Shown here one piece after another: positions 4,133-35,843 of a stretch of DNA of 64,000 nt (positions are counted from its first letter, which is position 1; every line of letters starts with the position of its first letter). The notes under the pieces were generated by a model. It made no database searches. It had not been told where the DNA came from and saw only the letters and a program-made list of their open reading frames with translations. Source of the stretch: Candidatus Woesearchaeota archaeon. Lineage in GTDB: Archaea > Nanobdellota > Nanobdellia > Woesearchaeales > SKGA01. Location: the NCBI GenBank assembly GCA_016926395.1, contig JAFGOT010000014.1:32058-96057 (forward strand). The letters are read 5' to 3'. Both the position numbers and the translations under genes were made by a program.

Positions 4133-5482
4133 ATGGATGTTCCTTTAGTGCAAATAAGTCCTGACTTAATTTCTTTTGACCCTCAAAATCCCCGGTCAGA
4201 ATCTTCTGAGAAAATAGAGACGGATTATAAATTCACTCAACTTAAAAAATCAATTGAGTTATTTGGTGTTTTTGTTCCTCTAATTGTAAGACAAGTAAAA
4301 TCAAAAACAAAACCTTATCGTTTGGTTGATGGAGAAAGACGTTTGAGAGCTGCTTTAGCATGTAACAAGCCCTTTGTTCCTGTTCACATAATTGATGGTA
4401 ATGGTGAGCGGGCTAAGGTTTTGGCTTATCAAATACATATGAACAGAAAAGATTGGACCAAATTAGCGGAACTAAAATCAATAAAGGATATTGTTCATGA
4501 AATAAAACTTAAGAATGATGATGATGATTTTGTTCGTAAAGAGCTTTGTGATAAAACCAGCATGGACTTAGCTCATGCTACTGATATTTTAACAATTTTG
4601 AAGTATGATTCTGAAACTATAAAAAAAGTTGAAGAGGGTTTAATTTATAGAAGTTATTTTATAGAATTAGAACGTTATTTTATACCTGCTTTAAAAACTG
4701 ATTTTCTTTCTTTGTATAACCATTATGGAGAAAAGAGATTAAGGAAGATTTTATCAAAAAAAGCTGAAGAAATAAAATTGGGAAAAACAAGTTTTTTAAG
4801 AAATAATTTTATTAAACCTTATTTTGAAAATATTATTGACAAGCCTAAGTTGAGGCGTGTTATTAAAGATTTTCTTGATAATCCTGATCGTGATTTACGA
4901 GATAGTGTTAAGAAATTGGAACGTCGATCAAGTAAAGTTAAGAAAGCTTCTAAGAAAAAGTCTTCTAAACAAAGACCGGTTGTTGATGTTATTGAGGTTC
5001 CAGATGAAATTGACCACTTAGTCAAGCTTTTCGATATTGAGAAGCTCTTAATTTCTTCTAATGTTTTTGATTCTATATTTAATAATTTAAAACAAGCCAT
5101 TGTCGAATTTGAAAGGAGAACAGGATATTTAGTGACTAATGAAATAAAACTTCAAAATGTTATTTACACTGTTTTAAGATCTTTGTTTAAGTCAACAGAG
5201 TTTGAGAATCCTACTGGTAAAGTTTGTTCTACAAGCAGTAAAGTAGATTTTATTTTAAAAAAGCATGGCATTGTAATAGAGATTAAGTATGTTAGAGATC
5301 GTCGTCATGCTAAAAATATTCATGATGAATTAGCTATTGATTATGCCAGATATAGGCTTTCTCCTGATTGTAATAAAATAATTAATTATGTTTATGACCC
5401 AAATAATTTTATTACCAATCCTGATTTGACTGTTTCGGAATTGAAAAAGTCTCTTCCGGAAGCTAATCATTATGTTCAGTAG
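4133..5482 (+). CDS. ParB/Srx-like domain fused to a C-terminal PD-(D/E)xK restriction-endonuclease-like domain (REase_DpnII-MboI-like)
   Basis: LKKSIELFGVFVPLIVR..YRLVDGERRLRAA (ParB); KVDFILKKHGIVIEIK...ELAIDYARY..SPDC.KII.YVYDP (REase). Confidence 0.75.
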   Translation: MDVPLVQISPDLISFDPQNPRSESSEKIETDYKFTQLKKSIELFGVFVPLIVRQVKSKTKPYRLVDGERRLRAALACNKPFVPVHIIDGNGERAKVLAYQIHMNRKDWTKLAELKSIKDIVHEIKLKNDDDDFVRKELCDKTSMDLAHATDILTILKYDSETIKKVEEGLIYRSYFIELERYFIPALKTDFLSLYNHYGEKRLRKILSKKAEEIKLGKTSFLRNNFIKPYFENIIDKPKLRRVIKDFLDNPDRDLRDSVKKLERRSSKVKKASKKKSSKQRPVVDVIEVPDEIDHLVKLFDIEKLLISSNVFDSIFNNLKQAIVEFERRTGYLVTNEIKLQNVIYTVLRSLFKSTEFENPTGKVCSTSSKVDFILKKHGIVIEIKYVRDRRHAKNIHDELAIDYARYRLSPDCNKIINYVYDPNNFITNPDLTVSELKKSLPEANHYVQ

Positions 5483-20869: not shown

Positions 20870-21023
20870 GGAGAGAAGATTCATTTTACTACAAATATCA
20901 AAAACTTGTTTTTGTTAGATTTGTTAAAATGTCCCAATAATCTTTGATTATTGAGGATGAACTGTTGAGGTTCACTCTATACGTTATTACGTTTCAAAGA
21001 AATGGGATAGCGGAGAGAGGATT
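20870..21023 (-). mobile_element. tRNA-iMet-linked 142-bp palindromic mini-element bounded by a direct repeat of the tRNA 3' half
   Basis: AATCCTCTCTCC (21023-21012) repeated as AATCTTCTCTCC (20881-20870). Shares a 37-nt module and the TGTAGTAAAATG end with the element at tRNA-Ser. Confidence 0.7.
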
Positions 21024-21082
21024 TGAACCTCCGACCTCGGGGTTATGAGCCCCGCGAGCACTCCTGACTGCTCCACCCCGCT
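21008..21082 (-). tRNA. Initiator tRNA-Met (CAT)
   Basis: Full cloverleaf, A1-U72, GGG/CCC anticodon stem, TTCAAAT T-loop; TTTAAATA box upstream; no encoded CCA. Confidence 0.97.
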
Positions 21083-35397: not shown

Positions 35398-35460
35398 AAA
35401 GCTTTAAAAAGGACTTTGAAGTCTCTGATTCTTACAAGCGTAACTATTGCGTTTGTTGTT

Positions 35461-35575
35461 TTTCATTGGCTTTTTTTTGCTGTAGTCGTATACAATGAAA
35501 GTCTTAGATTTTCAAGCATGCGACCTGTCTGAAAAGATTTTTTGTTTCATTGGCTTTTTTTGCTGCGGTCGCATA
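35461..35575 (+). repeat. Degenerate direct repeat (period about 84 bp) of the tRNA-Ser leader and first 14 nt
   Basis: tttcattggc(T8)gctgtagtcgtata at 35461 vs tttcattggc(T7)gctgcggtcgcata at 35545. Confidence 0.85.
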
Positions 35576-35643
35576 GTCTGGTATTGCGCAGGATTGCTAA
35601 TCCTGTCCTTTTAGGATCGAGTGTTCAAATCCCTCCCGCAGCG
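35562..35643 (+). tRNA. tRNA-Ser (GCT)
   Basis: GCTGCGG/CCGCAGC acceptor, CAGGA-TTGCTAA-TCCTG anticodon arm, TCCT-TTT-AGGA variable arm, G73; one T-stem mismatch. Confidence 0.95.
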
Positions 35644-35782
35644 CCTTTTTTCATTCTATATTGTTTTTATCATGTAGTCGGAATTTGAACACTACAAAAA
35701 TCAGAGATTTTTGAGGCATTTTAACAACTCTGTTGCATTTCAAAGAAATGTAGAGTTGTAGTAAAATGAATCCCTCCCGCAG
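35628..35782 (+). mobile_element. tRNA-Ser-linked 141-bp palindromic mini-element bounded by a 14-bp direct repeat of the tRNA 3' half
   Basis: AATCCCTCCCGCAG at 35628 and 35769; internal hairpins; homologous to the element at tRNA-iMet. Confidence 0.75.
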
Positions 35783-35843
35783 TGCTCTTCTTTTCTCGAT
35801 TTTTCTATAAAGTTTTATAAATTAAATTTCATTTTCGTCATTT

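Follow-up and report, generated by a model that had tools for sequence, protein, structure and literature searches.

The question raised by this 64,000-nucleotide (nt) stretch of a Candidatus Woesearchaeota archaeon (here called the window; contig JAFGOT010000014.1 of assembly GCA_016926395.1, positions 32,058 to 96,057) is why an intact initiator tRNA-Met (tRNA-iMet) gene is followed by a displaced copy of its own 3' part, with a small hairpin-rich insert between the two. A sequence-only reading of the window had proposed a mini-element of about 142 bp that was homologous to a 141-bp element at a tRNA-Ser gene. We found a smaller entity, namely, a discrete, structured, gene-less unit of two hairpins that is common to three tRNA loci. 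Its junction with the tRNA T-loop is constant, related units are inserted exactly and without duplication in a dispensable gene, the distribution is patchy, and a displaced tRNA copy beside it decays. Our favored reading, to which we assign a probability of about 0.45, is that the 76- to 82-nt core is a non-autonomous, structure-dependent mobile DNA module that is tolerated at essential tRNA genes provided that an intact 3' end lies upstream.

In the following, G000 is the genome under study, with C numbers for its contigs; labels of the type G001 to G040 denote related genomes, and L numbers denote extracted loci. Features of the two window loci are collected in Table 1. A1-U72 and three G-C pairs in the anticodon stem, which are general criteria for initiator tRNAs, justify the initiator call for the tRNA-Met (sequence reading). 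The 11-of-12 repeat of the iMet 3' part at a spacing of 142 nt (21012-21023 versus 20870-20881), noticed in the sequence-only reading together with the 141-nt spacing at tRNA-Ser, was recovered by sequence reading and repeat geometry, and all of the hairpins listed in that reading were present upon folding. The distal Met copy differs at three of the four bases past position 69; therefore, either the repeat ends there or the distal copy has decayed. Because these four bases mismatch the acceptor end, the distal copy is unusable as a tRNA 3' end, and it is unable to pair with the 5' acceptor strand. The outer copy thus appears to be decaying or truncated, in agreement with the degraded state ascribed to it earlier. 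At positions 63 to 69, the distal and functional copies have a G000-specific spelling in common, and relatives spell these positions differently, indicating that both copies arose within the G000 lineage. The left part of the Met insert includes a small hairpin (20990-21004), an 8/8-nt antisense copy of the T-stem and the start of the T-loop (20967-20974), and a sense T-loop half, GTTCA (20958-20962), which abuts the two-hairpin unit. Given that GTTCA lies directly left of the unit, the distal Met "copy" amounts to part of a tRNA that the unit interrupts between positions 57 and 58.

TABLE 1 Features at the tRNA-iMet and tRNA-Ser(GCT) loci (window coordinates)
Feature	Position	Strand	Basis
tRNA-iMet(CAT) gene, intact, presumably the functional copy, no CCA encoded	21008..21082	-	ARAGORN and Rfam (tRNA, 57.7 bits), predicted limits 21005/21008-21083
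Proximal copy of repeated segment, tRNA positions 58-69, starting with AATC in the T-loop	21012..21023	-	Sequence reading, repeat geometry
Locus-specific left part of Met insert	20958..21007	-	Unalignable with the Ser or Ile copies
Conserved two-hairpin unit, Met copy (76 nt)	20882..20957	-	Three-copy alignment, covariation, fold, covariance model
Distal displaced copy of tRNA positions 58-69, 11/12 identical	20870..20881	-	Sequence reading, repeat geometry
Decayed upstream copy of tRNA-Ser leader and first 14 nt, 35/41 versus 35537-35575	35451..35492	+	
tRNA-Ser(GCT) gene, intact, host of the sister copy	35562..35645	+	ARAGORN; Rfam, 49.8 bits
Locus-specific left part of Ser insert, opening with a T-run	35646..35690	+	Sequence reading
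Two-hairpin unit, Ser copy	35691..35768	+	Alignment; fold z, -2.7; covariance model R1, 91.3 bits
Distal copy of tRNA-Ser 3' part, 16/17 (14 nt exact)	35769..35785	+	Sequence reading, repeat geometry

At the tRNA-Ser locus, the repeat starts at 35628 and again at 35769. The Met and Ser inserts gave a local alignment score of 28 (shuffles, 9.7 +/- 1.6). Homology is confined to the right 74 to 78 nt (52 of 74 positions identical; z, 11), and no alignment was found for the left ~50 nt. The proposal of an element homologous at both tRNAs thus holds for the right part, with both inserts at the same T-loop point, and fails for the unrelated left part. Within the right part, the 37-nt module (20917-20953 versus 35695-35731) is identical at 31 of 37 positions and includes one compensatory A-T to T-A change, exactly as first read. 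No site other than those of Met and Ser carries the 16-nt word of the right end, whether the window or the complete 1.02-Mb assembly is searched. At 35680-35693, the Ser gene's own T-arm and T-loop recur in antisense at 13 of 14 positions, a match reached by 0 of 200 shuffles. The apical part of the second Ser hairpin is replaced by a different small hairpin. Since this apical hairpin resembles a palindrome in the left part of the Met insert, small palindromes seem to be exchanged as modules.

The sequence-only reading had anticipated further copies at tRNA genes, and a third copy was found behind the intron-containing tRNA-Ile(TAT) gene on the minus strand of contig C22 (tRNA, 4729-4840; distal copy, 4616-4632). 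This copy has a perfect 17-nt repeat at a spacing of 114 nt and a weaker antisense T-loop copy beside the unit. Its unit is identical to the Met unit at 64 of 78 positions (z, 25), and it is closer to Met than Ser is. Because the spacing of the third copy is 114 nt, the near-equal lengths of 142 and 141 nt are a coincidence and not a family trait. The notion of a single element of about 142 bp was therefore abandoned in favor of the two-hairpin unit, the only part in common.

The homologous part of the three copies (alignment A2; column identity, 83%) consists of two adjacent hairpins spanning 76 to 82 nt. In hairpin I (Met, 20932-20957), an 8-bp stem closed by a 3-nt loop stands on a 3-bp foot, from which it is separated by one unpaired base. 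Hairpin II (Met, 20882-20931) begins with 7 bp, continues past a 2-nt bulge in the 3' strand with 6 to 8 further base pairs, and is topped by a variable apical hairpin; the distal tRNA copy starts immediately after the last base of its 3' strand. The consensus structure of the three G000 copies comprises 26 pairs, and 96% of the 78 cells are paired; the slid-partner controls gave 35 to 47%. Six of the 26 pairs are changed on both sides, and none is changed on one side only. Fold z-scores were -2.4 (Met), -2.7 (Ser), and -3.8 (Ile). A covariance model (R1) was built and scored the three copies at 91 to 99 bits (Met, 99.5). A generic intrinsic terminator, which the sequence-only reading had named as the explanation that would undo its claim, was rejected, as the stems are A+T-rich with no following T-runs, identity across the three loci is 70 to 82%, and the changes are compensatory.

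Model R1 also detected weaker two-hairpin units (25 to 43 bits) in G000 and in 25 of 40 relatives, and we inspected four hits in G000 and eight of the twenty loci fetched from relatives. Five of the relatives' hits lie behind tRNA genes, namely, tRNA-His in G011, tRNA-Ser(GCT) in G016, tRNA-Ser(TGA) in G007, and tRNA-iMet in G001 and G017. All eight tRNA-linked units (Met, Ser, Ile, and these five) are in the tRNA orientation and end directly before the T-loop sequence AATC. At tRNA-His of G011, the sense T-loop half lies on the left of the unit, as at Met. Antisense T-loop copies of 9 to 14 nt were seen left of the units in G016, G007, G001, and G017, and antisense T-loop pieces of 12 to 14 nt were seen in G001, G017, and G010.

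The earlier view of a strictly tRNA-bound element had to be given up, because related units occur between genes and inside a protein gene, without duplication. The four inspected units of G000 (on C17, C22, C36, and C39) are intergenic and lack a repeat. In G015 (L371:1507-1562), a 56-nt unit interrupts an open reading frame (ORF) with a Bro-N domain (Pfam), and excising it restores a 309-amino-acid frame. A decayed copy of the same gene in G040 (L366) holds two units, at sites that are uninterrupted in G015. The three insertions are 55 to 56 nt long and exact, with zero flank duplication, indicating that insertion as such does not create a long repeat. Given that the Bro-N gene of G015 is otherwise intact, the insertion must have happened very recently, unless removal or bypass of the unit takes place at the RNA level. 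Hairpin I alone is a dispersed repeat: its exact 8-3-8 word is present at five G000 loci (the reversed control, at none), and with up to two changes, it is present at about 15, some via compensated stems.

Empty sites, also anticipated in the sequence-only reading, are the rule in relatives. Downstream sequence of 200 nt or more was available for 20 iMet loci, of which 17 are empty; in two others (G001 and G017), a different unit occupies the same point, and the repeat is exact over 17 nt. The strict right-end pattern of Met, Ser, and Ile was found in G000 only, in three copies, when 400 genomes of the order were scanned. Scans with the hairpin word (genome and viral contigs) and with a pattern for the right module (metagenome contigs) gave essentially chance matches to phages and bacteria that are unrelated. 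The pattern used on the metagenomes lacked stringency, and the results cover the matches listed; among these matches from the genome, viral, and metagenome scans, there was no larger element with such ends and no new family member. The iMet flank lacks synteny with that of the nearest relative, G013, and copy polarity is therefore unreadable from an empty orthologue. The relatives termed "same genus" are deep ones (orthologous proteins, 55 to 62% identical).

According to our favored reading, the unit would act through its folded form (single-stranded DNA or possibly RNA) and not through an encoded protein. It would enter DNA precisely and without target duplication, preferring the universal T-loop word ...TTCA/AATC... 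at positions 57/58. An insertion in a single-copy essential tRNA gene would survive only with an intact 3' end upstream, and the unit would be seen between an intact tRNA with its locus-specific trailer and a displaced copy of position 58 to the end because only such arrangements survive. The displaced partial copy would then decay, as at iMet. The spare end may arise when the unit takes the tRNA end and the trailer along and these enter their gene of origin again at its T-loop; alternatively, the hairpins themselves may promote the duplication. In either case, the mobilizing enzyme would have to act in trans. The repeats at tRNA-His of G011 and tRNA-iMet of G001 appear to fit comobilization and re-entry of end, trailer, and unit. 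The G001 repeat extends into the trailer (28 nt exact plus 36 nt at about 80%). At G011 tRNA-His, an exact repeat of at least 88 nt takes in the tRNA end and the trailer and reaches into the unit as far as the hairpin I loop; the array continues with an older, shorter unit and then a decayed third tRNA end, as might be expected if end, trailer, and unit had entered one gene repeatedly at its T-loop.

Spare gene ends are common in G000. At least 10 of the 28 recognized tRNA genes have a downstream 3'-end copy (Asn, two Ser, two Gly, Val, two Leu, Ile, and iMet), and three protein genes also carry downstream copies of their own ends. In this genus, CCA is encoded in 1 of about 10 proximal tRNA-Gly copies versus about 40% of distal copies and empty genes. 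This pattern fits the addition of a new, minimal end on the upstream side of the original, although the same picture would result if the repeat stopped at the discriminator base. A copy reverse transcribed from mature tRNA would be expected to bear CCA; CCA is present in the distal copy at several tRNA-Gly and tRNA-Ser sites, but it is also encoded by about 40% of the empty genes in the genus. The proposals that the 40-nt tRNA-Gly inserts are mini-tRNAs or that the hairpin foot is copied from the target were dropped as not significant in comparison with shuffles.

A conserved 297-amino-acid gene outside the window (G000:C22:15084-15140; L327) ends with FQKSLGK and a stop codon. A hairpin follows and then a second copy of the same seven codons and stop, respelled at seven of eight codons, including a switch of serine codon family, with identical amino acids. 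Because the sequence right behind the stop is antisense to the beginning of the repeated segment, the stop codon of this gene sits in a stem-loop. Orthologues (L332, L334 to L337, and L339) have C termini that differ between species; spare ends matching their own C terminus were seen in G010, G011, G004, and G001 and, less clearly, in G007 and G006.

Several points weigh against the module reading. We infer movement of the unit from its distribution only, and no mobilizing enzyme has been identified. The covariation rests on three sequences, which may all be of common ancestry. Simple insertion does not predict the antisense T-loop pieces that lie on the left of many units, and the recoded, amino-acid-identical spare protein ends are unexplained by in-place duplication and drift. 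Moreover, no trailer repeat is visible after the distal copy in the three G000 copies (z of 1 or less), and support for the comobilization step therefore comes only from the relatives.

Searches for an enzyme were conducted in a genome that is 82% complete (G000; 1.02 Mb in 40 contigs; 32% G+C), so that "not found" in G000 is not the same as absent. TATA-like boxes before the tRNA genes, canonical introns in five of them, and a gene for the splicing endonuclease (EndA) identify the genome as archaeal. The Y1 (HUH) transposase (PF01797) was found neither in G000 nor in any of the 18 genomes of the family and was found in 5 of 41 relatives; the units are abundant in genomes without it. Neither a reverse transcriptase (RVT_1) nor Cas1 (PF01867) was found in G000, and the best match to the integron integrase (TIGR02249) scored 66.8 bits versus a cutoff of 265. 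The only recombinases detected in G000 are four Xer-like tyrosine recombinases (one on C18, two on C30, and one on C6), none of which reaches the XerA cutoff; the nearest tyrosine recombinases are on contigs other than that of the window. The 130 nt between the Met repeats is full of stops and contains no recombinase or cargo gene. On C30 (G000:C30:441-6427), three tyrosine-recombinase-like ORFs, one with internal stops, lie within 6 kb; with the further Xer-like genes on C18 and C6, this is a large number for a 1-Mb genome. The region around the C30 recombinase genes contained no hairpin units and no meaningful repeats.

A more specific version of the module reading, which we regard as possible if doubtful, is that the units form a new class of structure-guided mobile DNA of DPANN archaea, in which the fold joins the two T-loop halves and mimics an intact T-loop, a host Xer-like recombinase or the replication machinery inserts or removes the unit exactly, and a unit with end and trailer attached re-enters the same tRNA gene, leaving the spare end behind. 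If this were true, two-hairpin units could be raw material for new noncanonical tRNA introns.

The first alternative, which we consider unlikely, is that the loci are integrase scars, i.e., that a larger tRNA-integrating element lost its interior and left two attachment (att) arms, with the hairpins as arm sites for a recombinase or accessory protein; in a variant, a tiny replacement-end cassette is recombined at the T-loop by an Xer-like enzyme, perhaps as folded single-stranded DNA. As in integrative elements bounded by attL and attR, there is a direct repeat of the tRNA 3' part from the T-arm (position 58 at Met, Ser, and Ile), and as in SSV- and pNOB8-type integrase elements, the insert is flanked by an intact tRNA and a displaced copy. 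This repeat, from the T-loop to the tRNA end, is classic att geometry, and the tRNA-Arg(TCG) gene of G000 houses a resident 7.4-kb SSV-type element of this kind, which has a split integrase and a 16-nt repeat; G000 also has four Xer-like recombinases in 1 Mb. The tRNA-Gly CCA pattern would fit a new end upstream of the original, the recoded spare protein ends recall the replacement ends of integrative elements, and the G011 array would fit re-entry of a circle of end, trailer, and unit. However, the inserts are only 113 to 142 nt long, without integrase or cargo, and only one side is conserved between copies, the arm beside the proximal copy being different at all three loci. No larger element with these ends was found in G000, in the 400 genomes of the order, or among the matches listed from the collection scans. 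Related units exist without any repeat, within a gene and between genes, and the same 76-nt unit would not be left behind three times over by deletions that occurred independently. Mechanically, double-stranded circles as small as 60 to 160 bp are also unlikely. A direct link to the resident 7.4-kb element was rejected: only a 10-nt word and an 8-nt word are in common with the Met insert, and the att region of that element lacks such hairpins.

Known classes of small mobile elements offer partial likenesses to the module. Palindrome-associated transposable elements (PATEs), which are nonautonomous IS200/IS605 derivatives, and repetitive extragenic palindromic (REP) elements, which are moved by Y1 transposases or REP-associated tyrosine transposases (RAYTs), are likewise gene-less, are tens of bases long, and have hairpins instead of terminal inverted repeats (TIRs). 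They also resemble the units in exact, strand-specific insertion without target duplication and in structure kept by compensatory change. However, there is no Y1 transposase in the 18 family genomes and no conserved 4- to 5-nt target word left of the units, and partial gene-end duplication around the unit is not a known feature of the PATE and REP family. Integron attC cassettes and the folded single-stranded, Xer-dependent attP of CTX-type phages are a possible model in which the site is a folded single strand; structure is conserved above sequence, the units are very small, and a host tyrosine recombinase acts in trans. Here, in contrast to integrons, there is no integron integrase, the units are dispersed and do not form a cassette array, and core words of the attC type are lacking. 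Integration at dif or attI is not known to make a gene-end copy.

Casposons (Cas1 transposons) are reported to target the 3' ends of tRNA genes and to repeat roughly 14 to 15 nt of the tRNA 3' end (PMC5137440). The targeting is alike; however, Cas1 was not found here, TIRs are lacking, the repeats range from 12 to >88 nt, and the units also insert without any repeat. Candidates based on TIRs and target site duplications, including MITEs (miniature inverted-repeat transposable elements), were rejected. Neither the Met nor the Ser insert (123 nt) has ends that are inverted copies of each other, and the inverted repeats are internal hairpins. The direct repeats are not of fixed length (12, 14 to 17, and 17 nt here; 28 to >88 nt in relatives; none at Bro-N). 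For a MITE, the whole insert should be homologous between copies, and only the right 74 to 78 nt is.

It is improbable, in our estimate, that no dedicated mobility exists at all, with palindromes provoking breaks, fold-back priming, and template switching, the tRNA-end copies arising as by-products, and the unit spreading by templated insertion. Short inverted copies of the adjacent T-loop do lie beside units, one breakpoint of the G011 repeat falls in the hairpin I loop, apical hairpins are swapped between copies, and no transposase was found. In yeast, short templated inverted duplications at breaks via fold-back are documented (PMC11724301, PMC10622511). Such repair products are nevertheless hard to reconcile with the same junction (before AATC) and orientation at eight tRNA genes or with three precise ORF insertions that lack local rearrangement, and compensatory changes that keep the stems paired would not be required of random repair products.

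Still less credible is a functional structured RNA in the tRNA trailer (processing, stabilizing, regulatory, or a small RNA) that is kept by selection and copied with its tRNA context. The covariation and the fold z-scores support a structure, read-through transcripts could include a unit lying in the tRNA orientation, and the antisense pieces could pair with the T-arm. Against this, there was no match to an Rfam family, the unit is absent from 17 of the 20 orthologous iMet loci, and it disrupts an ORF from inside. Oligo-T ends archaeal transcription, and the T-run directly after tRNA-Ser should stop transcription before the unit. The Ile copy does not retain the candidate TATA-like word of hairpin II, which disposed of a promoter inside this hairpin as well. 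Inspection by eye revealed no C/D-box or H/ACA boxes in the antisense piece; no formal test was made.

Archaeal T-loop introns with a bulge-helix-bulge (BHB) motif, for which transposition has been proposed in the Thermoproteales, resemble the units in being small hairpin-rich sequences that are common to different tRNAs and lie within the T-loop of tRNA-like DNA; here, unlike for BHB introns, no splicing is needed because an intact tRNA lies upstream. A former or latent intron at 57/58, spliced by the endonuclease, with the upstream tRNA derived from intron loss by partial duplication, is very improbable: the unit does split the T-loop exactly at Met and at G011 tRNA-His, EndA is present, and canonical introns are common in these tRNAs, but Met and Ser constructs scored 13 and 12 in the BHB test (14/14 for the genome's own tRNA-Ile intron), fractions of 0.47 and 0.49 of shuffles equalled these scores, the tRNA would not be restored by the best placements, the 5' acceptor strand has no pairing partner in the distal Met copy, and the 55- to 56-nt ORF insertions show no exon pairing.

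In full-text literature searches, we found no account from DPANN archaea of hairpin modules that are accompanied by duplicated gene ends. For tRNA introns of Asgard archaea, a 2026 preprint examined routes via mobile elements and reverse transcription, neither of which proved general, and two-hairpin units are not described in it. The three copies belong to a wider family of small, putatively mobile hairpin modules that is apparently undescribed. New here are the third copy, the covarying two-hairpin structure, the constant 57/58 junction, the duplication-free ORF insertions, and the negative BHB and Y1 tests. DPANN genomes are tiny and tightly packed, and how selfish DNA is tolerated and spreads in them is poorly known; in this 1-Mb genome, about a third of the recognized tRNA genes are accompanied by a spare duplicate of their 3' end next to a small hairpin module, and protein-gene ends and a tRNA 5' end show this architecture as well. 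If such modules move in a structure-guided manner without an enzyme of their own, they would represent a new way for mobile DNA to settle on essential genes without killing the host. They would then also be a concrete and testable origin of rearranged tRNA genes, and perhaps of introns, among archaea.

On the practical side, such repeats break assemblies at tRNA genes and mislead the annotation of tRNAs and att sites. Contigs of three relatives end exactly at the end of the iMet gene (L002 of G012, L021 of G005, and L022 of G008), which suggests that repeats behind this tRNA break assemblies.

Elsewhere in G000, two tRNA-Leu genes (G000:C20:5853-6070 and G000:C2:20164-20420) are followed by the same composite, in which part of the T-arm in sense orientation is joined by a hairpin formed from a T-loop-like word with its antisense and by a CAAAAATC-type hairpin; the acceptor end is kept in one copy and not in the other. 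Within the window, the decayed upstream copy at tRNA-Ser represents the gene-end-copy architecture at a 5' end (35451-35575), and a small hairpin of the same general type lies between that copy and the real 5' end of the gene. Finally, tandem tRNA-Thr genes are present at G000:C9:23306-23529, one of which was read by ARAGORN with the anticodon AGT, which would be unusual for an archaeal tRNA-Thr.

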